A DNA stretch of 64,000 bases from an uncultured bacterium. GTDB taxonomy: Bacteria; Patescibacteriota; Minisyncoccia; Phycocordibacterales; GWA1-40-21. A program made the position numbers and the translations under genes. Under the pieces are notes generated by a model, which did not search any database, was not told the DNA's origin, and saw only the letters and a program-made list of their open reading frames with translations. Below, one piece after another: positions 7,731 to 55,232 of the stretch. The stretch covers positions 144 to 64,143 of the forward strand of contig CAILDB010000014.1 of the NCBI GenBank assembly GCA_903832855.1. Direction: 5' to 3'. The stretch's first letter is position 1, and each line of letters begins with the position of its first letter.

Positions 7731-7736
7731 ACTAGC

Positions 7737-8005: not shown

Positions 8006-8015
8006 TAAATAGGTC

Positions 8016-8685: not shown

Positions 8686-8786
8686 GTTTCACAAAAGCGA
8701 GTTTATTTAATCAGTGTTTCTCAGCGTAGGGGATTGGCAACTATTTAGAAGCGTGTTTATTTTTTGTCTTTTAGAATTTTTAACAT

Positions 8787-8799
8787 GGCGCCGGGAATC
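8787..8799 (-). repeat. 13-nt duplicate of the tRNA-Gly 3' end (GATTCCCGGCGCC in tRNA sense), 170 bp beyond the intact tRNA; possible relic att site.
   Basis: Exact match to 8970-8982 on the same strand. Confidence 0.5.
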
Positions 8800-8927
8800 T
8801 GTCACAGATTGTTTGCTCGTCGCCACTCGCAAACATCCGCGACCCCGACTCAATCATTTTTCTTGCTAGAAAAATAATTTCCGTCTTTCGATTCCCTAAA
8901 ATAACTAGTTTGGACTAGTTATTTTCG

Positions 8928-8966
8928 CCGCACAAAATAAAATGGCCTTTCGGCCTTTTATTTTGT
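8928..8966. terminator. Long perfect hairpin gcacaaaataaaatggcc-tttc-ggccttttattttgtgc abutting the tRNA-Gly 3' end.
   Basis: Read directly. Confidence 0.55.
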
Positions 8967-9036
8967 GCGGGCGCCGGGAATCGAACCCGAACCCAATCCT
9001 TGGCAAGGACTAGTTCTACCGTTAAACTACGCCCGC
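8966..9036 (-). tRNA. tRNA-Gly (anticodon GCC); CCA not encoded.
   Basis: Cloverleaf: acceptor GCGGGCG/CGCCCGC, anticodon loop TTGCCAA, T-arm GGGTTCGATTCCC. Confidence 0.85.
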
Positions 9037-9169
9037 ATGCTCACAGGAAACATTATACACGAGTTATTAAAAATTTCAAATTATATATTATGGGTAACAA
9101 CGGTGGTCACAAGTTTTTGCCTGCTGGCAAAACTCGCGACCCCGCCTCGGCACGTCTGCCTCCGGCTAG

Positions 9170-9213
9170 CACAGATGAAAAAAGAAGCTTCCTAGCTTCT
9201 TTTTTCATCTGTG
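9170..9213. terminator. Perfect 20-bp stem hairpin cacagatgaaaaaagaagct-tcct-agcttcttttttcatctgtg directly 3' of tRNA-Arg.
   Basis: Read directly. Confidence 0.55.
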
Positions 9214-9283
9214 CTCCCAGTAGGATTCGAACCCACAACAACAGTTCCGAAGACTGTTGTGATATCCATTTCACCATGGGAGC
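9212..9283 (-). tRNA. tRNA-Arg (anticodon TCG by fold; assignment tentative); CCA not encoded.
   Basis: Acceptor GCTCCCA/TGGGAGC, anticodon loop CTTCGGA, T-arm GTGGGTTCGAATCCTAC. Confidence 0.75.
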
Positions 9284-9343
9284 ATTATGCACAATCATAC
9301 CCTATATTAGCTAAAAATCAAAAAATGTAATAAAATAGGTGCA

Positions 9344-10873: not shown

Positions 10874-10874
10874 A

Positions 10875-11043
10875 ATAAAACCCCTACATCACGCAGGATG
10901 CAGGGGCCCACTCGGAATTCATACCTAATTAAGTGGGGGTCACTTAGGCATATAGTCCAACGGCGGCGGGGGGAGAGGTGGGTGTTGGCCTTTCGAAATA
11001 AACCATCTCTCTTAGCGGAACGTACAGAACGAACAAACTCCTA
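10875..11043 (-). ncRNA. Candidate ~165-nt GC-rich small RNA on the minus strand.
   Basis: Minus-strand promoter TTGACA-16-TACACT at 11050-11077. Perfect terminator hairpin cccctgcatcctgcgtgatgtagggg plus TTTTATTTT at 10872-10906. Confidence 0.3.
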
Positions 11044-11133
11044 TAAAACAGTGTAGCAGAACCACAGAAATTGTCAAGTATTCTTTTATTCCTAAAATAT
11101 TGTATATATGTCCATATAATGTATAATTTAATT

Positions 11134-11493
11134 ATGAAAATAGATACAAATAAATTTGAGAAAAAGTTGAAGGATGAATTGAATCTTGTTGAGACAGAAT
11201 TAAAAACTGTTGCAAGAAAAAATCCAGAAAATAAAAATGACTGGCAGGCAATTCCTGATGATACAGAAAAAGATAGTCCAGATGTAAATGAGGCAGCAGA
11301 TGTAATTGAAGAATTTGGAAACAACGCGGGAATTGCGGACCAACTTGAAATTAGATTAAATGAAATCAAGGACGCACTTGCAAGAATTAAAGACGGTACA
11401 TATGGAATGTGCGGTGTCTGTGGAGAAGAAATTCCTGAAAATCGACTTGAGGCAAATCCTGCAGCGAATACTTGTATAGAGCACGCAAAGTAA
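11134..11493 (+). CDS. DksA/TraR-family C4 zinc-finger protein.
   Basis: C-terminal CGVCGEEIPENRLEANPAANTCIEHA. Confidence 0.7.
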   Translation: MKIDTNKFEKKLKDELNLVETELKTVARKNPENKNDWQAIPDDTEKDSPDVNEAADVIEEFGNNAGIADQLEIRLNEIKDALARIKDGTYGMCGVCGEEIPENRLEANPAANTCIEHAK

Positions 11494-11501
11494 AAAATTA
11501 A

Positions 11502-13064
11502 ATGAGTTTTGCAAAAGTTTACAGCGCCCAAACCGTAGGTTTGGGCGCAAAAATAATTGATGTAGAGGTGGACTTATCAAAAGGTCTGCATTCTTTTTCT
11601 ATCGTCGGCCTTCCGGACAAAGCAATTGACGAATCAAAAGACAGAATTTCTGCTTCAATAAAAAATAGCGGATTCAAAGCACCAAAAAATAAAAATCAAA
11701 AAATAGTTATTTCACTTGCTCCGGCAGATATCAAAAAAGAAGGCCCATGTTTTGATACAGCAATGGCCATAGCATACCTGCTTGCAAGTGACGAGATAAG
11801 ATTTGACCCAGAAAAAATACTTTTTATTGGTGAACTTTCTCTTGATGGAAAATTGCGAAGGATTAGTGGCGTCTTGCCGATAGTCGCCGAAGCAAAAAGA
11901 AAAGGTTTTGAAGAAATTTTCTTGCCAAAAGAAAATGCGGTGGAAGGAGCACTTGTAGATGGTATCAAAATCTTTGGAGCAAACTCAATTACTGAAATAA
12001 TTGCTCATATTAATACAAAAGAAACAAAAGACGGCGAGGAAGTAAAAATTTTACCGCAAAAAATTGCAAAACAAATAAAAACAAAAGTTGAAGAAGCGGA
12101 AGATGAGACTTTGATAGATTTTGCAGATATCAAAGGTCAAGAAACAGCAAAAAGGGGATTGGAAATCGCTGCAGCAGGCAGACACAACATCGCAATGTTT
12201 GGGCCACCAGGCACGGGGAAAACAATGCTTGCAAAAGCTTTCCGCCACATTCTGCCTCCGCTTACTTTTGACGAAGTTTTGGAAATCACTTCCATTCATT
12301 CCATCGCAGGCACACTCAAAGAAGATTTAATGTCAAATCCTCCAATCCGTTCACCACATCACACAGCTTCATATGTCTCAATTGTCGGCGGAGGTTCCAC
12401 TCCAAAACCTGGAGAAGTCACACTCGCACACGGAGGCGTTTTATTTTTGGACGAATTTCCAGAATTTGATAGAAAAGTTTTAGAATCACTTCGCGAACCA
12501 CTTGAAGAAGGAGAGATAAGTATTTCTCGAGCAAAAGGTTCCACAACTTTTCCCGCAAATTTTATTTTAATAGCATCAATGAACCCATGCCCATGCGGAA
12601 ACTACGGCTCAAAAGGAAAAGAATGCATTTGCAGAGCTCAAGACATTGCAAGATATCAGAAAAAATTGTCTGGACCGATAATTGACCGTATAGATATGTG
12701 GGTGGAAGTCTCGCAAGTGGATTATGAAAAGCTCGGAGAAAAAACCGTGTCAAAAGAAACCGAAAAAATAAAATCGCGTGTGAAAGAGGCCCGAAAAATC
12801 CAAGAAAAAAGATTTGAAAAAACAAAAAGAAAAACAAATAGCGGAATGTCCTCAAAAGAAATTATAAAAGTTGCAAATGTCACCGACGAAGCAATGGAAA
12901 TCCTCAAATCCTCTGCACAAAAGCTCGGCCTTTCCGCTCGTGCCTATCATCGCGTCATCAAGCTCGCCCGCACCATCGCAGACCTAGAAAAAAGCGATGA
13001 AGTCAAAAATACTCACATCTTGGAGGCCCTCCAATATCGTCCAAAAAATAATTTTGCTTATTAA
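11502..13064 (+). CDS. comM: YifB/ComM Mg-chelatase-like AAA+ ATPase.
   Basis: MSFAKVYSAQTVGLGAKIIDVEVDLSKGL...GPPGTGKTMLAK. Confidence 0.85.
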   Translation: MSFAKVYSAQTVGLGAKIIDVEVDLSKGLHSFSIVGLPDKAIDESKDRISASIKNSGFKAPKNKNQKIVISLAPADIKKEGPCFDTAMAIAYLLASDEIRFDPEKILFIGELSLDGKLRRISGVLPIVAEAKRKGFEEIFLPKENAVEGALVDGIKIFGANSITEIIAHINTKETKDGEEVKILPQKIAKQIKTKVEEAEDETLIDFADIKGQETAKRGLEIAAAGRHNIAMFGPPGTGKTMLAKAFRHILPPLTFDEVLEITSIHSIAGTLKEDLMSNPPIRSPHHTASYVSIVGGGSTPKPGEVTLAHGGVLFLDEFPEFDRKVLESLREPLEEGEISISRAKGSTTFPANFILIASMNPCPCGNYGSKGKECICRAQDIARYQKKLSGPIIDRIDMWVEVSQVDYEKLGEKTVSKETEKIKSRVKEARKIQEKRFEKTKRKTNSGMSSKEIIKVANVTDEAMEILKSSAQKLGLSARAYHRVIKLARTIADLEKSDEVKNTHILEALQYRPKNNFAY

Positions 13065-14200
13065 AACGGATTCTTTGCTCCGCGAATTTCAAAGTGGACG
13101 TGGGGGCCGGTGGATTTTCCGGTGTTTCCGGAAAGACCTATGACTTGGCCTTGGGCGACATTTTCGCCAGTTGTGACTTCCACATCGCTCATGTGTCCAT
13201 AGACCGTCTGTGTGCCATTGTAGTGTGAAATAATAATATAACTTCCATAACCACCATTCCATCCGCTGGATCTCGCAAGAATTACTTGGCCAGAAGCTGC
13301 CGCCATTATAGGTGTGCCGACTGGTGTAGCAATATCGATAGCATTGTATCCATGCAAACCTTGTGTTTTTCTTCCGCCGACAATAGGTCTCAAGTAATAA
13401 CCGACATCATCTGGACCACTATAACCAGGAATAAGTCGGCTATTTCCTGCTGTTGAACCTGAACTTGACGGAGTTGATGCAACGGAACTTTCACCATCAG
13501 GAATAATAATCTGCTGACCGAGGGCAAGGGGCGCGTTTCTATCTAGATCGTTAAACTGAACGATTTCGTCTAGGTCGCCTTTGTATTTTTTGGCAATACT
13601 TTGTAATGTTTCACCCTTTGTAACGGCGTGAGTGATACCTGAAACAGGCAAAATAACGAGTTGTTGACCAACCTTCAATGTCTTGCTAGTCAAATTGTTT
13701 GCCCACACGATAGTATTTGCAGAAACACCGAACATTTTGCCGACAGAAGTAAGTGTGTCGTTTTGTCTCACAATATAGACACTAATCTGACCGAGGTTTT
13801 GACTTTTGTCTGCTTCAAGCACAGTTCCGGAGGGGCCATTTTCTGAAAGTAGGGCTTCACCGCTCACAATATTGATATCAGCCGTCTTTTGAGCATTTTG
13901 ACCAATAAAATTTGAGCTATCTAAAAGAGGGGTGTCTGTCGTGGCAAAAGAGAAGCCAGTAGATGAACTTGAAGGGGAATTGGTATCATAGGCGATTGCT
14001 TTTGAGTTGGTATTGGAAAAAATCTTTGTTATAAAAGAGAAAAATCCTGCTTGGACAGGATATGGGCTCATCATGGTAAACATAATTGGTAGCAAATAGA
14101 CAATAGACCACTTGAGATAAGTGGCTAAAAATAAGGACTTTTTGGAACCATTAGCCCTACGAGCAGGGGAATAATGGTCTTTTTGGGGGTTTGTAGACAA
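13061..14200 (-). CDS. LysM-domain M23 metallopeptidase.
   Basis: Two LysM repeats; C-terminal HxxxD/HVHFE M23 motifs (GTPIMAAASGQV...GPHVHFEI). Confidence 0.8.
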   Translation of the reverse strand: MSTNPQKDHYSPARRANGSKKSLFLATYLKWSIVYLLPIMFTMMSPYPVQAGFFSFITKIFSNTNSKAIAYDTNSPSSSSTGFSFATTDTPLLDSSNFIGQNAQKTADINIVSGEALLSENGPSGTVLEADKSQNLGQISVYIVRQNDTLTSVGKMFGVSANTIVWANNLTSKTLKVGQQLVILPVSGITHAVTKGETLQSIAKKYKGDLDEIVQFNDLDRNAPLALGQQIIIPDGESSVASTPSSSGSTAGNSRLIPGYSGPDDVGYYLRPIVGGRKTQGLHGYNAIDIATPVGTPIMAAASGQVILARSSGWNGGYGSYIIISHYNGTQTVYGHMSDVEVTTGENVAQGQVIGLSGNTGKSTGPHVHFEIRGAKNPF

Positions 14201-27275: not shown

Positions 27276-29105
27276 ATGGGATTTTTAAATAATTTATTTG
27301 GTAAAAAGGAGAAAAAGCAAGATGAATTAACATCTTTTTTGCCTCAAGAAATATATGAGGCGGGCGTTTTGGAGTTGCAAGACATTATTGCACCATCGGC
27401 ACTTAAAATTACTCCAAAAGAATTAAATCTTGGAGAAAAAATAGTCCGCACATTTTTTGTCATTTCATATCCGAGATTTTTGACAGAAAGTTGGTTTGCA
27501 CCTGTCATAAACTTGGATAAAGTTTTTAATGTTTCCATTTTTGTCCACCCGATAGACACTGCAAAAATTTTAAAGACATTTCAGAAAAAAGTTGCAGAAG
27601 TTCAAAGCCAAATAAATGACAGAGAGAGAAGGGGACTTGTTCGTGACCCCGTTCTTGACACCGCATATCAGGACTTAGAGGGCTTGAGGGACAATCTTCA
27701 GCAAGCTCAAGAAAAACTTTTTGATGTGGGCCTTTACATTACAATTTATGCAAACAACGAGGAGGAATTAAACAAATTTGAATCGGAAATCAAGTCCATT
27801 TTGGAGTCACGACTCATCTATGTCAAGCCAGCACTTTTTCAGCAAGAGCAAGCATACAAAAGTGTCCTTCCTATCGCCACAGACCTTCTTGAAATTCATT
27901 CCAAACTCAACTCTTCTCCACTTTCAAGTATTTTTCCTTTCGTTTCTTTTGACCTCACATCAGACAAAGGAATTCTTTATGGAATAAACAGACACAATTC
28001 TAGTTTAGTTATTTTTGACAGATTTTCTTTGGAAAACTACAACTCTGTGACTTTTGCAAAAGCAGGTGCAGGAAAGTCGTATGCCACGAAGCTAGAAATT
28101 CTCCGCAGTTTGATGTTTGATATTGATGTGATGGTTATTGATCCTGAAAAAGAATACGAATTCCTTGCAGAGGCAGCAGGCGGAAAGTCCTTTTCTATTT
28201 CTTTAAACTCTGATTCACACTTAAACCCATTCGATTTGCCGGTGCCTAGAGAAGATGAATCATCGGCAAATGTATTGAGATCAAATATTATAAACCTCGT
28301 CGGACTTTTCCGACTAATGCTCGGCGGACTTACACAAGAAGAAGATGCTATTGTGGACAGAGCAATCGCAGAAACATATGCATTGAAAGATATCACACCG
28401 GATTCTGATTTTTCAAATATTGAGCCACCTTTGCTCTCTGATTTTGAGCTTGTGCTTACCGGTATGAAAGGTGCAGAGTCAGTAGTTCAAAAACTTTCAA
28501 AATATACGAGAGGTACTTGGGCGGGATTTCTCAATAAATCTACAAACATTGATATTGACCATAAATTTATTGTTTTCTCTATCCGAGATATGGAGGATGA
28601 GCTCAAGCCGGTTGCAATGTACCTTATTACTCACCATATTTGGAATGCAGTTAGAAAAAATCTAAAAAAGAGATTACTGGTCATAGATGAGGCGTGGTGG
28701 ATGATGAAGTCCGAAGACACAGCATCTTTCCTTTTCAGTATGGCAAAAAGAGGAAGAAAATATTATCTCGGTCTAGCCACTATTACGCAAGATGTGGACG
28801 ACTTTTTGCGTTCTCCTTATGGTCAGCCAATTGTCACCAACTCTTCAATTCAAATTCTTCTCAAACAATCGCCAACTGCCGTGGATAATTTGCAAAAAAT
28901 GTTTAATCTGACAGATGAAGAAAAGTTTTTGCTTATTGAGTCAGATGTGGGGGAGGGAATGTTTTTCGTAGGCTCAAAACATGTCGCAATTAAAATATAT
29001 GCTTCTTATACAGAAGACCAAATAATGACTTCCGATCCTTCGCAAATTCTCGCCATCAGAAAAGCCAAACAAGAATACAATGTAGCAAATGGTTTGATGG
29101 GGTGA
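27276..29105 (+). CDS. VirB4/TrbE-like conjugation-type ATPase.
   Basis: Walker A FAKAGAGKSYAT; Walker B LLVIDEAWWMM; 609 aa. Confidence 0.6.
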   Translation: MGFLNNLFGKKEKKQDELTSFLPQEIYEAGVLELQDIIAPSALKITPKELNLGEKIVRTFFVISYPRFLTESWFAPVINLDKVFNVSIFVHPIDTAKILKTFQKKVAEVQSQINDRERRGLVRDPVLDTAYQDLEGLRDNLQQAQEKLFDVGLYITIYANNEEELNKFESEIKSILESRLIYVKPALFQQEQAYKSVLPIATDLLEIHSKLNSSPLSSIFPFVSFDLTSDKGILYGINRHNSSLVIFDRFSLENYNSVTFAKAGAGKSYATKLEILRSLMFDIDVMVIDPEKEYEFLAEAAGGKSFSISLNSDSHLNPFDLPVPREDESSANVLRSNIINLVGLFRLMLGGLTQEEDAIVDRAIAETYALKDITPDSDFSNIEPPLLSDFELVLTGMKGAESVVQKLSKYTRGTWAGFLNKSTNIDIDHKFIVFSIRDMEDELKPVAMYLITHHIWNAVRKNLKKRLLVIDEAWWMMKSEDTASFLFSMAKRGRKYYLGLATITQDVDDFLRSPYGQPIVTNSSIQILLKQSPTAVDNLQKMFNLTDEEKFLLIESDVGEGMFFVGSKHVAIKIYASYTEDQIMTSDPSQILAIRKAKQEYNVANGLMG

Positions 29106-29118
29106 GGTGTTATGCCTG

Positions 29119-29164
29119 CCCCGTAGTGAATTTGATGGCAAATTCTACTACTGGGTGTTATAAT
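29119..29164 (+). promoter_or_regulatory. Palindromic motif ccccgtagtgaatttgatggcaaattctactactgggtg fused to an extended -10 (TGtTATAAT), 10 nt before the ATG.
   Basis: Same motif at 50498-50528 and 53330-53400. Confidence 0.5.
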
Positions 29165-29173
29165 TAAAAAAGA

Positions 29174-30184
29174 ATGAGTAAAAAAATCTTTACATTTTTT
29201 GGTCTTTCTATAGCTTTGACGGCGGTTTTGATAATTCCTTCTTTTTCTTTTGCTCAGACAGCAAGTTTGCAAAATATTACAAACTCCTCTCTCTCAATAT
29301 CACCTAGCAACCCAAAATTTGGAGATACTGTGACGGGAACTTTAACAAATGTTTACAAAAATTTAAATATTGCAACTATTTCTTGGTATGTAGATGGAAA
29401 TTTAAAGAAAGAAGGGGTTGGAATAACAAGTTTTTCTTTCGGTTTATCCAAAAAAACAAATGCGGTGACAATAAAAGCAGTGATAAGTTCCTCAGATTTC
29501 AATGATACGGTCACACAAAAGATTCAGCCAGCAGATGTTGACCTCGTCTTTGAACCACAGTCATATGCGCCATATTTTTACAAGGGTTCACCTCTTTTTA
29601 TCACAATGGGAACAGTCAAAGTTCTGGCAATTCCAGTAATTGTAAAAGATGGAGTGAAAATACCTGCGTCACAACTCACTTACACTTGGAATTTAAATGG
29701 AATAATAAATGGCGACGCATCTGGCAGAGGCAAAAATACTTTTGTTTTTAGTGGAAATGGAATTGATGATGAAGGAGATGTGGAAGTAACCGTGACAGAT
29801 GACAGCAAAAAAATAACAGCTGATAAATCAATGTCTATTTCGGCCTCAAATCCAAGTATTATGATCTATGAAGACAATCCTGCTTATGGATTATTTTGGA
29901 ACAATGCCCTGACCGGAAATGTAAACATTGGTTCAAAAGAAGAAATAGATATTATGGCATACCCGTTTAATTTTGATGTGAAAAGCGCAGATGATTCAGC
30001 TTTGACTATGGATTGGACTGTAAATGGGCAAAGCTATACTGCGCCGGTAAAGAAAAATGCTATTGCTCTCAAACAAGTTGCTTCTTCTGGTTCCGGTAGC
30101 GCAAATGTTGGCTTGAGTGTGGCAAATAACGCCAGAATATTTCAATTTGGAAGTTTTAATTTTACATTAAGTTATGCAAAGTAG
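29174..30184 (+). CDS. Secreted hypothetical protein (signal peptide).
   Basis: N-terminal signal MSKKIFTFFGLSIALTAVLIIPSFSFAQT. Confidence 0.5.
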   Translation: MSKKIFTFFGLSIALTAVLIIPSFSFAQTASLQNITNSSLSISPSNPKFGDTVTGTLTNVYKNLNIATISWYVDGNLKKEGVGITSFSFGLSKKTNAVTIKAVISSSDFNDTVTQKIQPADVDLVFEPQSYAPYFYKGSPLFITMGTVKVLAIPVIVKDGVKIPASQLTYTWNLNGIINGDASGRGKNTFVFSGNGIDDEGDVEVTVTDDSKKITADKSMSISASNPSIMIYEDNPAYGLFWNNALTGNVNIGSKEEIDIMAYPFNFDVKSADDSALTMDWTVNGQSYTAPVKKNAIALKQVASSGSGSANVGLSVANNARIFQFGSFNFTLSYAK

Positions 30185-30632
30185 AAAAAACAAAAAAATA
30201 TTAGCAATGATTTCTTTCTTGTTTGTTTTTTATGCAACGGTGCCTTTTGTTTTTTGTTTTGCACAAACGGATACTGGCTTAACATCACATTTACAGGATA
30301 TAGATGGTGGTAAAAAACAGTATGTACCATTAGAACAAACCGCAATTAATGCAGCCCTTGGTACAACAGGAAACCCGACCTCGGATCTTGCCACTTTTAT
30401 AAAAGCTGTCTATAATTTTGGGGTTGCTGCTGCTGCCGCCCTTGCCGTCCTTATGATTGCTTGGGGTGGAATAGAATATATGACAACCGATGCTTTTTAC
30501 GGTAAAAGTGAAGCAAAGGGTAAAATAACTGGTGCTCTCTGGGGACTTCTTCTCGTTCTTTCATCATATTTGATTCTTTGGACAGTCAACCCTTCTATAT
30601 TAAATATTCCAGCATTTTTACAAAGTAATTAA
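30174..30632 (+). CDS. VirB2/TrbC-like pilin candidate (signal peptide plus two hydrophobic helices).
   Basis: FGVAAAAALAVLMIAWGGIEYM and ITGALWGLLLVLSSYLILWTV. Confidence 0.4.
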   Translation: MQSRKNKKILAMISFLFVFYATVPFVFCFAQTDTGLTSHLQDIDGGKKQYVPLEQTAINAALGTTGNPTSDLATFIKAVYNFGVAAAAALAVLMIAWGGIEYMTTDAFYGKSEAKGKITGALWGLLLVLSSYLILWTVNPSILNIPAFLQSN

Positions 30633-30641
30633 AATTAAAAA

Positions 30642-31895
30642 ATGGACAAGAAAAAATCAATAATTTTAATACTCGGAGGAATAATAGTTATTTTAATAAT
30701 AGCTCTTTATTTTTATTTTAGAACTAGCACGGTCGCACCAGTTCCCGTAAATAATATACCAGACACTTCCACCGGTTTTGGCAACACATCTGCAAACATA
30801 AATACTTCAAATGGAAATGGTTTTGGTACTTCCTCAAATTCTTCTGGCACTTTAGTAAATAGTTCAACGACTCAAGCCCAACTCAAACAAATTTTTAGTG
30901 AACCAAATGCTGGAGCTGTAATATTTAAATCAGGCGGTGAAGAAAAAATTCGTTTGGTAGAAAAAAGCAATGGTCACATACAAGAGGCGAGCTTCGTTTC
31001 AAGTCAGGTGGTAAGAATTAGCAATACCACAATACCCAAAATATATGAAGCGCTCTGGGACAAAACAGGTGGAAAAGTGGTCTTGCGATACATAAAAGAT
31101 GAAACAGGAAAAATGCAAACATATTCCGCAAAAATAAATGTTTCCACTTCTACATCAAATGAATCCGTTGGCATTATTTCCGGAACATTTTTACCAGAAA
31201 ATATCCGCGAGCTTTCGGTAAACAAAAATATTTCTAAAGTATTTTACTTAATGGAAACGTCAAATGGGGGCTCTGCTGGCTTTACTGCAAACCTAGATGG
31301 CACCCAAAGCAAGCAGGTTTTTTCTTCCGAATTAAAAAACTGGAATATCGGATGGGCAGGGGACAACACTCTCTCGCTTTTGTCACGACCAAGTTATACT
31401 TTGAAAAATATTTTATTTTCTCAAAATGCTTCGGGTGGAAGTTTAGAAAAAATCATCGGCAATATGTATGGTATGACAACCCTTGTGGGAGATAATGGAA
31501 ATAAGGTGGTTTATTCTCAAAATGTGCGAAGTGTGCCAACTCTTGGATATTATAATGTAAAAACAGATGTAGATAATAACCTTTCTCTTAGCACAATCGC
31601 CGATAAATGTGTCTGGAGTAATGTGAGTGCAAATATCGTGTATTGTGCTGTTCCAAAGACGATGCCGAGATTTTCTTATCCTGATGACTGGTATAAAGGG
31701 AAGGTCTCTTTTTCTGATGATTTCTGGCAAATAAACTTGGATAATAATACAACAACCTTACTTTATCAGACGAAAGGCAATGAAAATGTAGATGCGACCA
31801 ACCTAATAGCAAGTGCAAAAGACGATTACATTGTATTTACAAACAAAAAAGACCTTTCTCTCTGGTCTTTCAAAACTTCTCCTCAAACAAACTAA
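30642..31895 (+). CDS. Membrane-anchored, S/T/N-rich extracellular hypothetical protein.
   Basis: N-terminal TM IILILGGIIVILIIALYFYF. Confidence 0.5.
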   Translation: MDKKKSIILILGGIIVILIIALYFYFRTSTVAPVPVNNIPDTSTGFGNTSANINTSNGNGFGTSSNSSGTLVNSSTTQAQLKQIFSEPNAGAVIFKSGGEEKIRLVEKSNGHIQEASFVSSQVVRISNTTIPKIYEALWDKTGGKVVLRYIKDETGKMQTYSAKINVSTSTSNESVGIISGTFLPENIRELSVNKNISKVFYLMETSNGGSAGFTANLDGTQSKQVFSSELKNWNIGWAGDNTLSLLSRPSYTLKNILFSQNASGGSLEKIIGNMYGMTTLVGDNGNKVVYSQNVRSVPTLGYYNVKTDVDNNLSLSTIADKCVWSNVSANIVYCAVPKTMPRFSYPDDWYKGKVSFSDDFWQINLDNNTTTLLYQTKGNENVDATNLIASAKDDYIVFTNKKDLSLWSFKTSPQTN

Positions 31896-33907: not shown

Positions 33908-35248
33908 ATGTTAGACAACAAAACACTTTGGAATAATGTTCTCGCGGGGATGGAGCTTGATTTATCAAAGGCAAATTTTAGTATGTGGTTTAAAGAAACA
34001 TACATACAAAAGCAAGAAGACGGGACTATTTTTCTTGCCGTCCCAAATGTTTTTGTAAAGGATTGGCTTTTTAATAAATACCATAAAGATATTTTGAAAA
34101 ATTTGAGAAATTTTGGCGAACATATCCGAGCGATACAATATACTATTGCAAAAGAAGAGTCTAAACATGTAAGCGGGGAAGTAAAAGTGAATATAAATCA
34201 CAACGAGCTTCCTTTGAACGATTTTTATATTAATAAAGAAGATAATCTAAATCCAAAATATACATTTGAAACATTCGTAGTCGGACCTTTCAATGAGCTC
34301 GCTCACGCCGCCTCTCAAGCAATATTAAAAAATCCAGTTGTCTACAATCCTCTTTTTATTTATGGAAGCACCGGCCACGGTAAGACACATTTGATTCAAG
34401 CTGTTGGAAATTATATTAAGACCGCTGACCCGACAAAGAAAATCTTTTATATGACATCGGAAAAATTTGTGAATGATTATTTAAATGCACTAAATAATGG
34501 CAGTGTAAATAATTTTAAGGAAAAATACAGAAAATATGACCTACTTATCATAGACGACATCCAATTTTTATCAAAAAAGGATAAATCACAGGAAGAATTC
34601 TTCCATTTATTCAATAATTTTCATGATAGTGGCAAACAACTTATTTTTTCATCGGACAAACACCCGAATTTTATTCCCGATATAGAAGACCGTATAAAAT
34701 CAAGGTTTAATGCAGGCATGATTGTGGAAATACAAAAACCGGACTTTGAATCAAGAATACAAATATTCAAAAAGAAGGCTGTGATGATGAATTTATCCAT
34801 TTCAAACGATGTTATAGAGCACCTAGCCTATTCTATTGAGGGAAACATAAGAGAGCTCGAGGGGGTTTTAAATATTATTCTTTGTCAGACACAACTAAAA
34901 AATAAAGAATTAAATATAGGCGAAATCAAGGAGCTTATTAAAAATACAGCGAAACCAAAAAAAATAAGGTCACCCAAAGAGGTAATAAAAACAGTTGCAG
35001 AATTTTATGGACTAAAAGAAGAAGAAATTTATGAAAAGGGTAGGAAGAAAGAGATAATAAAACCAAGACAGGTGGTAATGTATATGTTAAGAGAGATTTT
35101 AGACATTTCTTTTCCGTCAATTGGTGATAAAGTAGGGAACAGAAATCACTCCACGGTCATTCACTCTTACGAAAAAATTAAAAATGATATGAAAACAGAC
35201 GCCGAGCTTGCTGGAGAGATAAATCAAATACACGCAATGCTTAAATGA
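33908..35248 (+). CDS. dnaA: Chromosomal replication initiator DnaA.
   Basis: GSTGHGKTHL Walker A; box VII and the C-terminal DNA-binding domain (...REIL..SFPSIG..). Confidence 0.9.
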   Translation: MLDNKTLWNNVLAGMELDLSKANFSMWFKETYIQKQEDGTIFLAVPNVFVKDWLFNKYHKDILKNLRNFGEHIRAIQYTIAKEESKHVSGEVKVNINHNELPLNDFYINKEDNLNPKYTFETFVVGPFNELAHAASQAILKNPVVYNPLFIYGSTGHGKTHLIQAVGNYIKTADPTKKIFYMTSEKFVNDYLNALNNGSVNNFKEKYRKYDLLIIDDIQFLSKKDKSQEEFFHLFNNFHDSGKQLIFSSDKHPNFIPDIEDRIKSRFNAGMIVEIQKPDFESRIQIFKKKAVMMNLSISNDVIEHLAYSIEGNIRELEGVLNIILCQTQLKNKELNIGEIKELIKNTAKPKKIRSPKEVIKTVAEFYGLKEEEIYEKGRKKEIIKPRQVVMYMLREILDISFPSIGDKVGNRNHSTVIHSYEKIKNDMKTDAELAGEINQIHAMLK

Positions 35249-50497: not shown

Positions 50498-50528
50498 GAT
50501 GGCAAATTTTACTACGGGGTGATATAAT
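50498..50528 (+). promoter_or_regulatory. Half-palindrome motif gatggcaaattttactacggggtg plus extended -10 TGaTATAAT, 7 nt before the ATG (leaderless).
   Basis: Same family as 29119 and 53380. Confidence 0.5.
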
Positions 50529-50534
50529 TTTCCT

Positions 50535-51392
50535 ATGTTAAATAATAATTCAAAAGAAATCACTCAAATCGCTTTATTTAAAAAGAAAGAAATAAGAAAG
50601 AAAATTTATAATGGTGAATGGTGGTTTGTGATTAATGATGTCATTGAAGCTTTGACTGATTCAGCTGACCCCGCACAATATTTTAAACGCATGAAAGAGC
50701 GTGATTTAGAATTAGATAAATTAGTTAGTCAAGGGGGGGTACAATTTGTACCACCCCTTATGCTTGAGTTTGAAACTAGTGGTGGTACACAAAAAATGTA
50801 TTGCTGGCATACAGAAGGGATGTTTCGCCTCGTCCAATCAATCCCATCTCCTAAAGCTGAGCCCTTTAAACGCTGGTTGGCAAAAGTCGGCTATGAAAGA
50901 GTTCAAGAAATTGAAAATCCGGAACTGGCTACAAAAAGGACGCGAATGCTTTATAAGCTGAAAGGATATTCCGATTCTTGGATAGAAAAAAGAATGCGGG
51001 GTATTGCAATTCGTGAAGAATTGACCGATGAATGGCAAAATAGGGGAGCAAAAGAAGAAAAGGATTATGAAATATTGACAGCAGAAATTTCCAAAGCAAC
51101 TTTTGGTATAACACCGACTGAATACAAAAAACTCAAAGGTCTTAAGCGAGAAAATTTGCGTGATCATATGGATGATTTTGAACTCATTTTCACAATGCTT
51201 GGAGAAAGGTCAACGACTGAAATTCATCGCCAAGAAAAATCTGTTGGTGTGCCAAAATTAAAACAAGATGCTCACCGTGGCGGAAGAGTTGCCGGAAACG
51301 CCAGAAAAGAATTGGAAAAAGAGCTCGGGCATTCAGTAGTTTCTAAACAAAATTATATTAAAAATCCAGAACACAGAAAAAGGTTGAAATAA
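50535..51392 (+). CDS. Bro-N domain protein (phage antirepressor-like).
   Basis: EWWFVINDVIEALT... is the Bro-N signature. Confidence 0.55.
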   Translation: MLNNNSKEITQIALFKKKEIRKKIYNGEWWFVINDVIEALTDSADPAQYFKRMKERDLELDKLVSQGGVQFVPPLMLEFETSGGTQKMYCWHTEGMFRLVQSIPSPKAEPFKRWLAKVGYERVQEIENPELATKRTRMLYKLKGYSDSWIEKRMRGIAIREELTDEWQNRGAKEEKDYEILTAEISKATFGITPTEYKKLKGLKRENLRDHMDDFELIFTMLGERSTTEIHRQEKSVGVPKLKQDAHRGGRVAGNARKELEKELGHSVVSKQNYIKNPEHRKRLK

Positions 51393-51417
51393 AAATTATT
51401 TCTGATATATTTACCAT

Positions 51418-53253
51418 ATGGAAAATTACGAAAAACATCCCTTACATCTCAAAATCCCCGAACTTCAGCAGAGCGAAGAAGTTGCCGAAGCAGTAGAAAA
51501 GCAAGAACGCCTGACCGGCGAGGATTTACCGAACGACCCCAACGAAAGAATAGAAGCGTATATGGATCGTTTGGAAAACATCTTTCTCAATCCAGACGAA
51601 CGAGTTCGCGAGCGTAATCTTGAAATGCTCCGCCCTGCCATCTATGATGCTCTCATCATCAAACCCGAGCAAGTTCCAGAATCATATTTTGAACTTCAAC
51701 AGCAAGTAGCTCGTGAACGAGGCCAACCCGTGGAAACAATTCCTCAAAACGTCCGTGAACAAATGATAGATACTGTCATTGAAGACCAAAGACACTCCTT
51801 GGATCAATGGATGGAATATTTGACATCGGATGATGTAGCATACCCGACATGGTTTAAATATTTTGTTTGGAGAAATGTTGTCAAATTATCGCAATTTGAT
51901 AAGACACTTGGAAAATTCAAAACAAGAACGGATTCTACAGTCGCTCCATATCCCGATATCTATCGTGCACCACTTGCAAAAATCCTAGACATTTACGAAC
52001 AAGTTGCGGGAGATAACAGTAAACTCAAAGACCCACAAATTCAAGTCGAATTTTCCAAAAGATTTCCCAAATTATATGCTGAGTTTATCAGTGAGTCATT
52101 AGCCGTTACCATTGAAAGCAAGGAACAAATCAAAGGTAAATGGATTAAATACAATAAAGGTAATCAAAAAGAAGCGGATAAACTTTTTGATTCTATGCAA
52201 GCTAAAGGCACAGGTTGGTGTATAGAAGGTCGCACTACTGCCAGAAACTATGTTGAACAAGGCGACTTCTATGTCTATTATACATATGACAAAGATGGTA
52301 ATCCAATTCAGCCAAGAATTGCTATACAAATGAACGGTTCTGAAATAGGGCAGATTCGAGGAATCCAAGCTCATCAAGAACTAGAGCCAATAATGAGCGA
52401 TATTCTAGACGAAAAACTAAAAAGTTTTGGTCCAGAAGCCGACAAATACAAAAAGAAATCGACTGATATGAAGCACCTCACCGAAATAGACAACAAGACA
52501 AAAGCAAATCAACCACTTACAAAAGACGAACTTTTCTTTCTATATGAAGTCAACGCAAGTATCGAAGGTTTTGGCTATGCTAAAGACCCCCGCATTGAAG
52601 AAATACGAGACAAAAGAAATATCAAAGAAGACCTGCCAATTCTTTTTGATTGCACACCAAATCAAATCGCCACAACTCCGGAAGAACTTACTGCAGACAC
52701 AGTTGCATACATCGGCCCTTGGACTCCAGTTGTATTAAATCAACTCCCAAAAACCGTCAAACATATTTACGAGAAATTTCCTGATCAAAAAGCTTTCTTA
52801 AAAGAAATTACCCCTGACCCGGAAATTAATTCTGCCGATACTGCCATCGCCAAACTAGAAGCCGAGGGCCACACAATGGGTGATTACGGAAAAGATATGC
52901 TTGCAAAAGTGAATTGGGCAGAACAACTCAAATCTTCCTACGAAGTCGTCTCTTTCACGGTCGGAGAACTCTTCGATGACAGAGATGTCCACACATATGC
53001 CGATATCAAATCAAAAGCCCAAGAACTTGGTCTTGACCTTGTCCCGCAAGCTCTTGCCCCCTCTATTCGTTTGAATTATCCAAAGGATGGTGAATGGACA
53101 AATATTGCAATGAATGCAATACGCGACCGCGATGGCTACCTCAGGATTTTCCACTGCAACGGGCGTGGCTCGAAGTCGTGGCTTGGTCTCAGCAGCGGTC
53201 GTGACGACGGCAGGTGGCACGACGGCAGTCGCTTCTTCTTTGTCCGCAAGTAA
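51418..53253 (+). CDS. DGR target (variable) protein; the C-terminal ~45 aa form the variable region.
   Basis: The C-terminus ...RDRDGYLRIFHCNGRGSKSWLGLSSGRDDGRWHDGSRFFFVRK matches the TR-encoded ...RDRDGNLRIFNCNRNGSKSWLDNNNGRDDNKWNDNNRFFFVRK. Higher GC than neighbouring genes. Confidence 0.8.
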   Translation: MENYEKHPLHLKIPELQQSEEVAEAVEKQERLTGEDLPNDPNERIEAYMDRLENIFLNPDERVRERNLEMLRPAIYDALIIKPEQVPESYFELQQQVARERGQPVETIPQNVREQMIDTVIEDQRHSLDQWMEYLTSDDVAYPTWFKYFVWRNVVKLSQFDKTLGKFKTRTDSTVAPYPDIYRAPLAKILDIYEQVAGDNSKLKDPQIQVEFSKRFPKLYAEFISESLAVTIESKEQIKGKWIKYNKGNQKEADKLFDSMQAKGTGWCIEGRTTARNYVEQGDFYVYYTYDKDGNPIQPRIAIQMNGSEIGQIRGIQAHQELEPIMSDILDEKLKSFGPEADKYKKKSTDMKHLTEIDNKTKANQPLTKDELFFLYEVNASIEGFGYAKDPRIEEIRDKRNIKEDLPILFDCTPNQIATTPEELTADTVAYIGPWTPVVLNQLPKTVKHIYEKFPDQKAFLKEITPDPEINSADTAIAKLEAEGHTMGDYGKDMLAKVNWAEQLKSSYEVVSFTVGELFDDRDVHTYADIKSKAQELGLDLVPQALAPSIRLNYPKDGEWTNIAMNAIRDRDGYLRIFHCNGRGSKSWLGLSSGRDDGRWHDGSRFFFVRK

Positions 53254-53257
53254 CTCT
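53118..53257 (+). repeat. DGR variable region (VR).
   Basis: ~140 bp aligned to the TR; 19 of 20 mismatches, including all inside the cgcgaccgc...gtccgcaa core, fall at positions where the TR has A; one off-A mismatch in the terminal gtaactc/atcactc tail. Confidence 0.85.
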
Positions 53258-53329
53258 TTTTTCTAATATCTTTTACCTTATATTATCCCTTTTTCCTTTT
53301 AACTTTTTTCTTTTAAAAATTTTGTGATA

Positions 53330-53400
53330 CCCCGTAGTGAAATTTGCCATCAAAAAATTCTCTAATTTTTTTAAAAATAATGGCAAATTCTACTACGGGG
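53330..53400. promoter_or_regulatory. Split palindrome ccccgtagtgaaatttgccat-N29-atggcaaattctactacgggg between VR and TR. The right arm is followed by a -10-like gataagataat and points into the TR.
   Basis: Arms are perfect reverse complements. Confidence 0.5.
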
Positions 53401-53630
53401 TGATAAGATAATACAGAAAGTAGGCGAATATGTCGGCGATTACGGTTTCCGACTGCCGAAATTAGTATCCATACATCGAGAGTATCCGTGATCAAGGTTT
53501 CGGGTAGAGTGGTGTATGAAGACCTTCAAAAAATGAAGTTACTTGGTTCGGAATCTAGGGCATTTATAAATGCCGAATTCGATTCAATCCTGAGAGTATT
53601 CAAAGGGTGGTGGTATAGGAGGGTTCCGAA

Positions 53631-53770
53631 CAAACGCGACCGCGATGGCAACCTCAGGATTTTCAACTGCAACAGGAATGGCTCGAAGTCATGGCTTGAT
53701 AACAACAACGGTCGTGACGACAACAAGTGGAACGACAACAATCGCTTCTTCTTTGTCCGCAAATCACTCA
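53631..53770 (+). repeat. DGR template repeat (TR), AAC/Asn-codon-rich; it gives rise to the spurious ORF 53488-53871.
   Basis: Offset +513 from the VR; adenines mark every VR difference. Confidence 0.85.
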
Positions 53771-54121
53771 TTTCTCTCTCGCTTTTGCGAGAGAGTTTTG
53801 TTTTAGTGTTCTTCCAAGCCAACCACCGAGTTCCTTACCTATTTCATTTGTTCTTTCCGAAAGCCAGATGAATTTCTTGTCTTCAAGAGATTTATTTTCC
53901 CAAAGAATGAGCAAAAAAACATTTAATGTGTTGATTTTTCTGATTGCTAATCTGATGTAGGGGGCTTTTTCTTCTTGTGACAGAAAAGTGGCGATAGCTA
54001 CCGCCTCTATTATGTCAGTAAATAAATTATCTACCTTTTGACCGAGAGTGTGCCTGTGGTTTTTCGGCAATATCTGATAATATTCATACCAAAACTTGTA
54101 AACGGTTTTGATTTCTTGCAT
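53768..54121 (-). CDS. avd: Avd-like accessory variability determinant (four-helix-bundle, IVS-protein family), encoded on the strand opposite to TR and RT; its stop overlaps the TR 3' end.
   Basis: YKFWYEYYQILPKNHRHTLGQKVDNLFTDIIEAVAIA is a typical Avd/23S-IVS pattern. Start placed at ATG 54121 (MQEIKT); the ORF track extends to a TTG through the poly-G run. Confidence 0.65.
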   Translation of the reverse strand: MQEIKTVYKFWYEYYQILPKNHRHTLGQKVDNLFTDIIEAVAIATFLSQEEKAPYIRLAIRKINTLNVFLLILWENKSLEDKKFIWLSERTNEIGKELGGWLGRTLKQNSLAKAREK

Positions 54122-54140
54122 TATCGGCAATAATTTTAGT

Positions 54141-54151
54141 GGGGGGGGGGG
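54141..54151. repeat. 11-nt G homopolymer in the 50-bp divergent avd/RT promoter region.
   Basis: tagtgggggggggggcttt read directly; exceptional in a ~35% GC genome. Confidence 0.6.
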
Positions 54152-54170
54152 CTTTATAGTTGTCTTTTTT

Positions 54171-55175
54171 ATGTCCAAAATTAAATTCGTTCATAAGTAT
54201 GAAGATATCATAAAAACAGAAAACCTGCTAGAAGCATGGAAGGAATTTTTGCGTGGGAAAAAGAAAAAAGATGATGTGCAGATTTTTGAAAGAAATTTGA
54301 TGCAGAATATTTTCTCTCTTAATGCGGATTTGAAAACGAGAACCTACGAACACTCCAAATATGAGGCCTTTAATATCTCTGACCCTAAGCCAAGAACAAT
54401 TCATAAAGCGAAAGTTAGAGATAGACTTTTACACCACGCTATTTATAGATATTTATATCCATTTTTTAATAAAACTTTTATTGCCGACTCTTTTTCTTGT
54501 CGTCTGGATAAGGGAACGCACGGAGCAATAAAAAGATTAGACGGATTTTATCTAAAGGTCTCAAAAAACAATACAAAACAGGTCTGGGTTTTGAAATGTG
54601 ATGTTCGCAAGTTTTTTGATTCCATAAACCACGAGATTCTCTTAAATATTTTGGATTCATATATTGAAGATAAAGAAGTCACAGAGCTTTTAAGAAAAAT
54701 AATATCCAGTTTTTACAAAAAAGAAGTTGGTGTGGGGCTACCTCTCGGAAATCTAACCTCCCAGCTTTTTGTGAATATCTATATGAACATTTTTGATCAA
54801 TTCGTAAAACACAAATTGAAAGCAAAATGCTATATCAGATATTCTGATGATTTTGTTATTTTGTCGAAAAACAAGGAATGGCTTGAAAGTATTTTGCCAA
54901 AAATTACCGACTTTCTTAGCGAAAGACTCAAACTTTCTTTGCATCCAAACAAAGTATCAATCAAAACATTTTCTTCCGGCACGGACTTTCTCGGCTGGGT
55001 GAATTTTCATAATCACAAAGTACTTAGAACGAGAACAAAAAAGAGAATGTTTAGGAATATTTTGGCGAAGAATTTCAAAAAGGAAGTGGTGCAGTCGTAT
55101 TTGGGGTTGTTGAGCCATGGAAATACAAATAAAATAAAAAATAATTTGTTGAGGCAAATTCCAGTTTCCTTTTAA
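54171..55175 (+). CDS. DGR reverse transcriptase.
   Basis: RT motifs PKPRTIHKAKVRDRLLHHAI, CDVRKFFDSINHE and YIRYSDDFVIL (YxDD). DGR-diagnostic GLPLGNLTSQ (IGxxxSQ). Start at ATG 54171. Confidence 0.85.
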   Translation: MSKIKFVHKYEDIIKTENLLEAWKEFLRGKKKKDDVQIFERNLMQNIFSLNADLKTRTYEHSKYEAFNISDPKPRTIHKAKVRDRLLHHAIYRYLYPFFNKTFIADSFSCRLDKGTHGAIKRLDGFYLKVSKNNTKQVWVLKCDVRKFFDSINHEILLNILDSYIEDKEVTELLRKIISSFYKKEVGVGLPLGNLTSQLFVNIYMNIFDQFVKHKLKAKCYIRYSDDFVILSKNKEWLESILPKITDFLSERLKLSLHPNKVSIKTFSSGTDFLGWVNFHNHKVLRTRTKKRMFRNILAKNFKKEVVQSYLGLLSHGNTNKIKNNLLRQIPVSF

Positions 55176-55203
55176 AGGGCGGGTTCAAATTGAACACCCC
55201 CTT

Positions 55204-55232
55204 CCAGTTGTACGATAATTTCGTACAACTGG
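55204..55232. terminator. Bidirectional terminator, perfect 12-bp stem ccagttgtacga-taatt-tcgtacaactgg.
   Basis: Read directly. Confidence 0.6.

Follow-up and report, generated by a model that had tools for sequence, protein, structure and literature searches.

The window, a 64-kb stretch of patescibacterial DNA, carries between polA and tig (50498-55232) a target gene ending in a repeat termed VR, a second copy of that repeat termed TR, an avd gene in reverse orientation and a reverse transcriptase (RT) gene. A preliminary description had recognised a complete diversity-generating retroelement (DGR) of target, VR, TR, Avd and RT here, and this was borne out by every test run; the arrangement recurs in about 40 related CPR loci. 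The polA and tig flanks were correctly named in that description, and its open reading frames were recovered as described, including the RT motifs and the target end.

The target gene (51418-53253, + strand) encodes 611 aa and belongs to a very large unannotated family. It consists of a conserved N-terminal module of about 410 aa and a C-terminal domain that contains VR and ends in RFFFVRK. Neither a signal peptide nor a transmembrane segment is evident at its N-terminus, and the protein is apparently cytoplasmic. The function of the N-terminal module is unassigned, in agreement with the earlier view of a target without assignable function. [quoted passage not shown] The closest systems include the CLec-fold variable proteins of other DGRs (Mtd and TvpA, 2y3c) and CLec domains of the FGE/EgtB type.

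VR (53119-53250, + strand; target codons 568-611) and TR (53632-53763, + strand) align without gaps over 132 nt at an offset of 513 and form the biggest direct repeat of the 6-kb region. A search of both strands of the window returned VR itself as the single VR-like copy. All 20 of the 20 mismatches in this core fall at TR adenines (13 A to G, 4 A to C and 3 A to T), which upholds the adenine-specific homing signature proposed earlier; 20 of 42 adenines are changed as compared to 0 of 90 non-A positions. Over 53119-53249, with 19 of 41 adenines changed, the adenine specificity has a Fisher p of about 7e-12. Eighteen of these 19 lie at codon position 1 or 2, and the twentieth changed adenine, at 53250, silently turns AAA into AAG at the third codon position. 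At the codon level, 15 codons differ between the two repeats, with 13 amino-acid changes and 2 silent ones. The preliminary tally of 19 of 20 mismatches at TR adenines captured the pattern but was slightly off in number, since the span it used (53118-53257 against 53631-53770) has 23 mismatches, 21 of them at TR adenines. With its 42 adenines and 12 in-frame AAC/AAT codons, TR allows about 1e23 protein variants. An IMH-like 3' boundary (53229-53264, + strand) comprises the invariant block CGCTTCTTCTTTGTCCGCAAG followed by VR-specific sequence, and alignments place its IMH*-like counterpart in TR at 53742-53777. Among 25 aligned loci, VR ends in CGCAAG at 24, while TR ends mostly in CGAAAN or CGCAAN; comparison of related loci revealed no conserved hairpin after VR.

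The RT gene (54171-55175, + strand) encodes 334 aa from its ATG, and its reading frame is open further upstream to a TTG at 54108. The protein matches RVT_1 (7e-25) and phrog_1423 (3e-104) and contains the motifs IRYSDDFVIL and LPLGNLTSQLF. Its best PDB match is 8ub7_A, which we infer to be the Bordetella phage bRT, with an E-value of 6.6e-47; group II intron RTs reach 5e-22 and a retron-type RT 1e-21. In that alignment, LGNLTSQLF is matched with IGSLTSQLF and YSDD with YMDD. The phage relatives of the RT are known DGR phages. The profile and structure-database searches thus favour DGR RTs, as the preliminary description had it, over those of group II introns or retrons. The avd gene lies on the opposite strand (53768-54121, - strand; 117 aa from an ATG at 54121), divergent from RT, and its stop codon overlaps the 3' flank of TR. 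Its product matches three DGR Avd models, namely NF033474 DivGenRetAVD (1e-14), PF22296 bAvd (7e-9) and phrog_3206 "Avd protein of DGR" (8e-13), although the Pfam and NCBIfam scores are under the curated cut-offs (36.6 vs 40 bits and 54.8 vs 80 bits, respectively). In public contigs it is called as a 117-aa Avd with PF22296. An Avd between TR and RT had been noted correctly, but its inverted, minus-strand orientation had been missed.

[quoted passage not shown] The RT does have sub-threshold matches to group II intron, Drt and retron models. However, every match to a non-DGR RT model is far under its cut-off (146.7 vs 300 bits, and lower), searches for intron RNA domains and for retron msr/msd found none, and ordinary mutation does not fit differences confined to adenines. 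The same A-only pattern is repeated in dozens of loci. The A-only mismatches, their recurrence across loci and the structure-database match of the RT effectively refute this explanation, the chance of which we regard as negligible.

Adjacent RT and Avd genes were found at about 40 of the 80 genome loci that carry a target homologue. In these approximately 40 CPR loci, avd is always divergent from RT and TR abuts the 3' end of avd. The mismatches in related loci are almost all at A, with examples of 23 of 24, 19 of 19, 21 of 21 and 24 of 24. CPR DGRs are well documented, and the B3 architecture, TR-(avd)-RT, accounts for 90% of them (Wu et al. 2018, PMC5758913). Clade 2 of the CPR DGRs is described as cellular, with targets that lack known domains (Roux et al. 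2021, PMC8144416). The locus shares with these systems its gene order, the reversed avd, the CPR host and the chromosomal location, as well as a target without recognisable domains or transmembrane segments and A-specific VR/TR mismatches at the 3' end of the target. As nothing sets it apart from the published definition of CPR DGRs, it is a member of that group. We propose, with a probability of about 0.93, that the locus is a chromosomal DGR of CPR bacteria (Patescibacteria) in the B3 layout of target/VR, TR, reversed avd and RT, which would operate by the mechanism below from a TR RNA gene and possibly under a G-tract switch. By analogy with the Bordetella phage paradigm, TR would be transcribed, and an RT-Avd complex would copy the TR RNA into cDNA, misincorporating opposite template adenines. 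The cDNA would then replace VR and recode up to 24 codons in the CLec-fold tip of the target.

The data support, in part by inference, a discrete and self-contained RNA gene around TR (53401-53804). Its parts would be a -10 box, a leader of about 220 nt with five covarying helices, TR, a short duplex between the leader and the 3' flank of TR, and a U-run preceded by a 9-bp tetraloop hairpin. The putative promoter is an extended -10-like box (53401-53409, + strand; TGATAAGAT) that aligns with TGnTATAAT/TAnAAT across the 24 aligned related loci; a simple sigma-70 scan missed it because there is no -35. The structured leader (53413-53631, + strand) was defined with RNAalifold and a covariance model and contains helices P1 (53433-53452), P2 (53470-73/53515-18), P3 (53483-53506), P4 (53546-57/53621-31) and P5 (53587-91/53604-08). 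RNAalifold gave 39 pairs, 33 of them with compensatory changes. In the pair test, 95.4% of cells were paired and the covariation score was 0.69, as compared to 36-50% and 0.11-0.17, respectively, in slid controls. At several pairs G-U predominates, in keeping with the TR-sense strand. In this window, 3 of the 11 P4 positions are non-pairs. The covariance model, R1, gave the window a score of 162 bits (E 9e-46) and matched exactly once per TR at 47 places and at 31 metagenome places; 22 of the genome copies and the 31 metagenome copies were outside model building. The leader has no match in Rfam, nor do the RT-n Rfam motifs match at this locus.

Downstream of TR, a 3' module (53768-53804, + strand), defined by a terminator scan, covariation and a duplex test, looks like an intrinsic terminator. 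It begins with a U-rich strand (53768-53773), which is followed by a 9-bp stem capped by a UUUU tetraloop (53774-53795) and then by the U-run TTTTGTTTT (53796-53804). The hairpin was called by the terminator scan and its stems covary in 25 loci. The U-rich strand pairs with an A-rich leader strand (53528-53538), and cognate strands paired better than permuted ones (0 of 5000 permutations), a result inflated by shared ancestry and A/U-rich composition. In the Bordetella phage BPP-1 DGR (mtd-avd-TR-brt), whose DGR RNA spans the 3' end of avd, TR and Sp, an Avd-binding stem-loop lies just downstream of TR (Handa et al., preprint 10.1101/2023.10.23.563531). [quoted passage not shown] The 3' hairpin would be the counterpart of the Avd-binding stem-loop of other DGRs; it probably also ends transcription ahead of the antisense avd, which is convergent with the TR RNA. 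In contrast to BPP-1, the hairpin here is followed by a U-run and then antisense avd, a large conserved structured RNA lies 5' of TR, and the target looks cytoplasmic rather than being a phage tail fibre. Two related loci, L007 and L015, have kept the target and TR RNA in a neighbourhood that lacks both RT and avd, in line with an autonomous RNA gene. The promoter, terminator and transcript ends of the TR RNA and the role of its leader are assigned here from sequence features.

The 49-nt spacer between the divergent RT and avd genes contains a poly-G tract, G11 (54141-54151, + strand), the sole tract of G≥8 or (GA)≥5 in the window. The tract is followed by a -10-like TATAGT and lies 19 nt before the RT ATG; the upstream extension of the RT frame runs through it. 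Of 56 related loci, 54 have poly-G or (GA)n, both homopurine on the RT strand, in the avd/RT spacer, with lengths of G7-G18 for the former and 10-43 nt for the latter. In this strain, the tract is G11, G12 or G13 in otherwise identical contigs, where G12 was deduced from gene coordinates (12 contigs) and G13 occurs in L001 and L305. These length differences suggest that a hypermutable G-tract may act as an on/off switch of the mutagenesis machinery. In Haemophilus, a (TA)n tract between the divergent hifA and hifB genes makes for a phase-variable promoter. A poly-G tract in the Neisseria porA promoter is likewise phase-variable (PMC3639595). The spacer resembles these promoters in its perfect mono- or dinucleotide repeat within a short divergent promoter region, in the -10-like hexamer after the repeat and in length variation between otherwise identical genomes. 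It differs in its CPR host and in that it would control a mutagenesis machine instead of a surface antigen. In some clades, moreover, the tract seemingly falls within the RT reading frame or immediately precedes the ATG; since its position relative to the RT start codon varies between clades, no single switching mechanism fits all. Homopolymer length differences of this kind could also be short-read assembly errors.

Almost as probable as not, in our estimate, is that the homopurine tract is a fixed functional element with length differences due to assembly noise, such as a purine-rich ribosome-binding or 5'-UTR element for RT or an H-DNA-forming homopurine-homopyrimidine element in the divergent promoter. 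The RT ATG of about 13 loci is 1-4 nt past (GA)n with a GAGG-like sequence before it, as for a ribosome-binding site, and the homopurine strand is the RT strand for both repeat types. Two other strains have invariant tracts (G8 in 3 contigs and G10 in 4), and near-identical (GA)n loci have equal lengths. However, perfect repeats of 7-43 nt far exceed the needs of a ribosome-binding site, and their wide length range between relatives does not suit a fixed element. About 22 loci lack any start codon between the tract and RT homology, and the reading frame there crosses the tract, which would then be coding. G11 versus G13 is the sole difference between this locus and L001 over 15.8 kb, and G9 versus G18 (L113 and L155) is atypical for a sequencing error. 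In the searchable CPR DGR papers, no mention was found of such an avd/RT homopurine repeat or of a structured leader 5' of TR.

The exact 611-aa target, VR included, is present on 53 public contigs. Its 90% cluster holds one other sequence, which differs at one residue outside VR. Because every public copy has the same VR, there is no sign of present activity. A genuine DGR that is now silent or decayed would account for this, with VR fixed after past diversification and the machinery off, either for good or while the G-tract is in an OFF phase; G11, G12 and G13 would all exceed a normal promoter spacer if the tract lay between -35 and -10. We consider this rather unlikely. The RT, avd and target genes are intact, the catalytic YSDD is present, and so are the elements of the TR RNA at the 162 bits given above. 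Minority VR variants would be invisible in assemblies, which are consensus sequences, and many of the contigs may stem from related samples.

Upstream of the target lies a Bro-N domain gene (50535-51392, + strand; PF02498 1e-12, phrog_15286 5e-81), a neighbour rather than a part of the DGR. It had been linked to the cassette, for which a higher GC and acquisition from phage had been suggested; none of these proposals held. The GC of 50498-55232 is 0.381, equal to its flanks (0.38 and 0.37) and to be compared with 0.372 for the window; only VR (0.61) and the TR RNA (0.445) are GC-rich. None of the 80 genome loci and 30 metagenome loci of the DGR lineage has Bro-N. The cassette as a prophage remnant that carried in Bro-N and the DGR together is therefore very improbable, even though Bro-N, besides the phage family matched above, has relatives on small faecal contigs labelled "Bacteriophage sp." (40-45% identity). 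The region has no phage DNA match and has housekeeping genes as neighbours (polA, tig, nusA and tsaE), the leader model has 0 matches in 80 viral loci, and the RT is 55-67% identical to CPR chromosomal homologues as compared to at most 39% to phage RTs, in a CPR clade described as cellular (PMC8144416). A 31-nt inverted repeat (50490-50520/53329-53359) does bracket Bro-N and the target, but it is a genome-wide motif. The 20-nt motif concerned, GGCAAATTNTACTACGGGGT, has further copies at 50501 (upstream of Bro-N), 29137 and 33970, and forms an inverted pair at 53329-53401 with 22-bp arms and a 29-nt spacer. Related DGRs do not conserve this pair, the right-hand copy of which abuts the -10-like box of the TR RNA.

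A repeat comparison of the region showed that the final ~140 nucleotides (nt) of the 611-aa target gene (51418–53253, + strand) occur again 513 nt further downstream. The variable repeat (VR) spans 53119–53250 (+), corresponding to codons 568–611 of the target, and aligns without gaps to the core of the template repeat (TR) at 53632–53763 (+). All 20 mismatches in this core fall at TR adenines, which are replaced in the VR by G (13), C (4) or T (3). Thus 20 of the 42 TR adenines were changed as opposed to none of the 90 non-adenines (Fisher p ~7e-12, computed on 53119–53249, where 19 of 41 adenines differ). The preliminary description had counted 19 of 20 mismatches at adenines; when the stretch it aligned was tallied again, the adenine pattern stood but the count became 21 of 23. 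Of the 19 changed adenines that were tabulated, 18 lie at the first or second codon position; the twentieth, at 53250, is a silent third-position change. With 12 AAC or AAT codons, the TR permits 24 variable codons, or about 1e23 proteins. The 3′ boundary appears similar to the IMH/IMH* arrangement, with an invariant block followed by tails specific to the VR and to the TR. Of the 25 aligned loci, 24 have a VR that terminates in CGCAAG, and the TRs mostly have CGAAAN or CGCAAN. No conserved hairpin or cruciform of the BPP-1 type followed the VR in the 25 loci scanned, and no second VR in trans was detected on either strand of the 64-kb window. A C-type-lectin fold is predicted for the variable domain by modelling, in agreement with what had been proposed for the target C-terminus.

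The TR is followed by the avd ORF on the reverse strand (117–136 aa; 53768–54121, or to 54178) and by the reverse transcriptase (RT) ORF on the forward strand (from an ATG at 54171 or a TTG at 54108 to 55175). Assignment of an RT to the DGR clade was based on an [I/L]GxxxSQ motif, a YxDD motif and a closer match to DGR RTs than to those of group II introns or retrons. The RT of the window matched RVT_1 and the phage RT family phrog_1423 (3e-104). Among solved structures, its best match by far was 8ub7_A (E 6.6e-47), compared with 5e-22 for group II intron RTs and 1e-21 for a retron-type RT. In this alignment LGNLTSQLF lies over IGSLTSQLF and YSDD over YMDD, and both the similarity scores and the motifs place the enzyme with the DGR RTs, as the preliminary description had expected. 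Nine entries contain this 328-aa RT, which is presumably the bRT of the Bordetella phage studied by cryo-EM. The Avd ORF matched DGR models over their full length (NF033474, 1e-14; PF22296, 7e-9; phrog_3206, 8e-13), with scores under the curated cut-offs of Pfam (PF22296) and NCBIfam (NF033474); it had no match among PDB sequences. A 127-aa ORF across the leader and TR (53488–53871, +), called as a gene in a public contig (L001, 12071–12454), is almost certainly a false gene, since the TR is coding-like. The order TR (53632–53763, +), avd (53768–54121, −) and RT (54171–55175, +) is that of the CPR architecture B3, whose core order is TR-(avd)-RT with avd on the reverse strand (Wu et al. 2018, PMC5758913). 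With adenine-only mismatches, a DGR-type RT, an Avd and a VR at the 3′ end of the target, the locus is a complete DGR, as first described, and a member of the known CPR B3/clade-2 DGRs. As a DGR, it adds a further case to a CPR system that is already well documented.

The target itself belongs to no family in Pfam, NCBIfam or PHROGs and has no solved relative by sequence, and none of 42 target homologues had a Pfam match. More than 671 full-length relatives were found at 50–70% identity, all from Parcubacteria, Microgenomates and other CPR MAGs. A library of 1.84 billion proteins contained 7214 representative members of the family at E ≤ 1e-3. Conservation is strong over the N-terminal 560 residues (GTGWC, QPRxAI, GFGYxxDPR), and the final ~45 residues are hypervariable around a W/F scaffold. 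Many relatives have just the N-terminal ~410 residues in common and differ in their C-termini. The locus therefore serves as a clean and complete reference for a very large, entirely uncharacterised target family with a conserved 410-aa N-terminal module.

Related loci were surveyed by scanning one genome per species, which yielded 80 loci with a target homologue. RT and Avd adjoin the homologue in about 40 of the 80; in roughly 20 loci with at least 5 kb on both sides, the target homologue has no DGR. Avd is always divergent from RT in the related loci, the TR always abuts the 3′ end of avd on the RT strand, and the TR-(avd)-RT order is the same in every related locus that has an RT. The module lies downstream of the target as in the window, or is inverted upstream or downstream of it. 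In about 40 related loci, nearly every VR/TR mismatch is at an adenine. One locus, L029, contains a tandem duplication of avd, TR RNA and target (6175–13253): the two targets are identical, as are their VRs, and avd, TR RNA and a G14 tract are each present twice, but the RT only once. In many metagenome loci (L101, L106, L118, L149 and others), target and TR RNA point away from each other, and only about 60–80 nt separate the target start from the leader start; given this short gap, the two may have a shared bidirectional promoter region.

A phage origin of the cassette had been suggested from its supposedly higher GC content and from the Bro-N gene preceding the target (50535–51392, +). The GC content equals that of the flanks, and no phage DNA match to the region was found. 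The flanking genes are polA, tig, tsaE and nusA, which confirms the polA and tig neighbours noted before. Neither Bro-N, polA nor tig is a conserved neighbour across the related genome and metagenome loci. Phage acquisition is thus unsupported, and a prophage or phage-borne DGR was rejected in view of the missing phage DNA match and the housekeeping flanks. The Bro-N gene, which does have phage relatives, is an independent neighbour of the DGR. The phage relatives of the RT are DGR-bearing phages with at most 39% identity.

The exact 611-aa protein, VR included, was found on 53 contigs, all consensus assemblies, with a single VR sequence. The only other protein in its 90%-identity cluster has a difference at residue 275, which is not part of the VR. 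At the consensus level, neither the 53 contigs nor the 90% cluster of two showed the VR to vary within or between populations. Past diversification is thus shown but present activity is not; this lack of heterogeneity bears on activity and not on the identity of the element as a DGR.

The non-coding stretch upstream of the TR was aligned from 25 loci. It contains a conserved region of ~220 nt, the leader, preceded by an extended −10-like box, TGnTAnAAT, at 53401–53409 (+). RNAalifold predicted 39 pairs, 33 of them with compensatory double changes. A covariance model of the leader matched 47 times in 81 sources, once for each TR and in every case immediately 5′ to it, including 22 copies outside the building set; the window scored 162 bits (E 9e-46), and 31 further matches came from metagenome contigs. 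In the 47-sequence alignment, 95.4% of cells were paired versus 36–50% when the partners were slid, and the covariation score was 0.69 versus 0.11–0.17 in controls, with no shuffle reaching the observed values. At several pairs G-U predominates, as would fit the TR-sense strand. The RNA flanking the TR was unmatched at the gathering threshold in Rfam 15, including RT-1 to RT-19 and the RT-10/Sp motif, and at E ≤ 10 the interval 53260–54200 gave just chance miRNA-like matches on a palindrome at 53303–53420. In viral contigs, 80 loci matched a 16-mer, all by chance, with no covariance-model match among them. A check for the leader beside other target families gave the same RT, Avd and target family in 30 of 30 metagenome loci where the contig sufficed, a test that is biased because its seed pattern was taken from this lineage.

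Directly 3′ of the TR, a terminator scan identified a hairpin with a 9-bp stem and a UUUU tetraloop at 53774–53795 (+), whose stem covaries in the 25 loci and which, together with a U-run, extends to 53804 (53774–53804, +). An Avd-binding stem-loop just downstream of the TR, also with 9 bp and a tetraloop, has been described in 207 of 278 Avd-type DGRs (preprint 10.1101/2023.10.23.563531). The hairpin at 53774–53795 matches this stem-loop and may bind Avd; with its U-run it also looks like an intrinsic terminator ahead of the antisense avd. An A-rich leader segment (53528–53538) is complementary to a U-rich stretch between the TR and the hairpin, and the G-C and U-A positions of this duplex shift together between clades. 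Cognate pairs beat permuted ones in 5000 of 5000 permutations, a test weakened by shared ancestry and low sequence complexity. The topology resembles the published duplex of upstream and downstream segments termed "cPRT Stop".

The spacer of the Bordetella element is the RT-10 motif of Rfam (PMC5737381). In the commonest CPR architecture, antisense avd takes the place of a Bordetella-type spacer. Our best guess is that the leader supplies the functions given by the 3′ spacer in the Bordetella element. The TR template would be an autonomous structured RNA gene of ~390 nt made up of leader, TR and hairpin, and the spacer functions (primer positioning, stop duplex and protein grapples) would largely have moved to the ~220-nt leader 5′ of the TR. 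Such a permuted DGR RNA might be able to sit apart from RT and avd. Two loci, L007 (3109–5441) and L015 (26–2339), have target, leader, TR and hairpin, with 15 of 15 and 16 of 17 VR/TR mismatches at A, respectively. RT and avd were not found within 6–7 kb of either, and secD/secF, or mnmA and alaS, follow directly. A TR RNA without nearby RT or avd fits an autonomous RNA gene; at these two loci the RT either acts in trans from elsewhere or was lost. If it holds, the covarying leader provides a direct, testable model of template recognition by RT-Avd in the commonest CPR architecture.

The 49-nt spacer between avd and RT contains a G11 tract (54141–54151), the only tract of at least eight G or at least five GA units in the 64-kb window. 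A homopurine tract was present at this position in 54 of 56 loci with both genes, as poly-G (G7–G18) in 28 and as (GA)n (10–43 nt) in 26. In 1.14 Mb of loci there were 69 such tracts, all but about nine of them at the avd/RT position. The window and L001 are identical over 15,824 nt save for G11 versus G13; L305 also has G13, and G12 is implied by gene coordinates in 12 further contigs. Among near-identical sets, the tract was polymorphic in three (G11/12/13, G9 vs G8 and G9 vs G18) and invariant in five, and homopolymer error is possible in these comparisons. The position of the tract relative to the RT start varies between clades. About 22 loci have an RT frame that stays open across the tract and no start codon beyond it, so that the tract would be coding there; in about 13 an ATG lies 1–4 nt after (GA)n; and in the clade of the window a −10-like hexamer separates the tract from an ATG that lies 13–22 nt downstream of it (41 nt in L011).

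It is possible that the tract is a fixed purine-rich or H-DNA-forming element and that the length differences are assembly noise. No (GA)n length differences were seen between near-identical loci, and no variation was found in two other strains (G8 in three contigs, G10 in four). The most attractive reading of the conserved position and polymorphic lengths is a phase-variable switch. The (TA)n tract of hifA/hifB is one example of phase variation by a repeat tract. The poly-G tract in the porA promoter is another (PMC3639595). In this DGR lineage, a hypermutable poly-G or (GA)n in the control region between the divergent avd and RT may turn the hypermutation machine itself on and off stochastically. 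If this holds, phase variation may gate targeted hypermutation, which could also explain the static look of most assembled VRs. We tentatively propose, with a probability of about 0.3, the joint reading that the homopurine repeat switches hypermutation stochastically and that the TR RNA is an autonomous, permuted RNA gene of ~390 nt. A full-text search of the DGR literature, short of Paul et al. 2017 (Nat Microbiol 2:17045), found no description of the leader RNA or the repeat tract; both are lineage-wide features. The Avd proteins of close relatives (P0272–P0318) were called at lengths of 115 to 159 aa, and we suspect that gene callers may extend the N-terminus through the tract, read as poly-C (poly-G), in some frames. 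The PPPP of the window, from a TTG at 54178, is an example of such an extension. If so, the repeat tract also affects avd annotation.

A 20-nt motif, GGCAAATTNTACTACGGGGT, occurs five times in the window versus 0.01 expected: at 29137–29156 (+), 33970–33989 (+), 50501–50520 (+), 53329–53348 (−) and 53382–53401 (+). The copies at 29137, 50501 and 53382 directly precede a TGnTATAAT-like −10 box, ahead of an unknown gene, Bro-N and the TR RNA, respectively. Partly palindromic itself, the motif makes up a 22-bp inverted pair that lies between VR and TR; this repeat (53329–53401) was rejected as a DGR feature, as the motif occurs genome-wide. It was not seen in related DGR loci and could represent a genome-specific operator or promoter element. 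At 3837–3894 (+), the window matches the DUF3800-IX RNA motif with 39.9 bits (Rfam gathering score 36.8), a structured RNA without assigned function. By its gene content, the window also carries a type-IV-secretion-like cluster: a VirB4/TraG-like ATPase, a T4SS pilin-like gene and unknown genes are present at 27276–31895 and 33908–35248, upstream of dnaA, whose proximity suggests that the window is near the replication origin.
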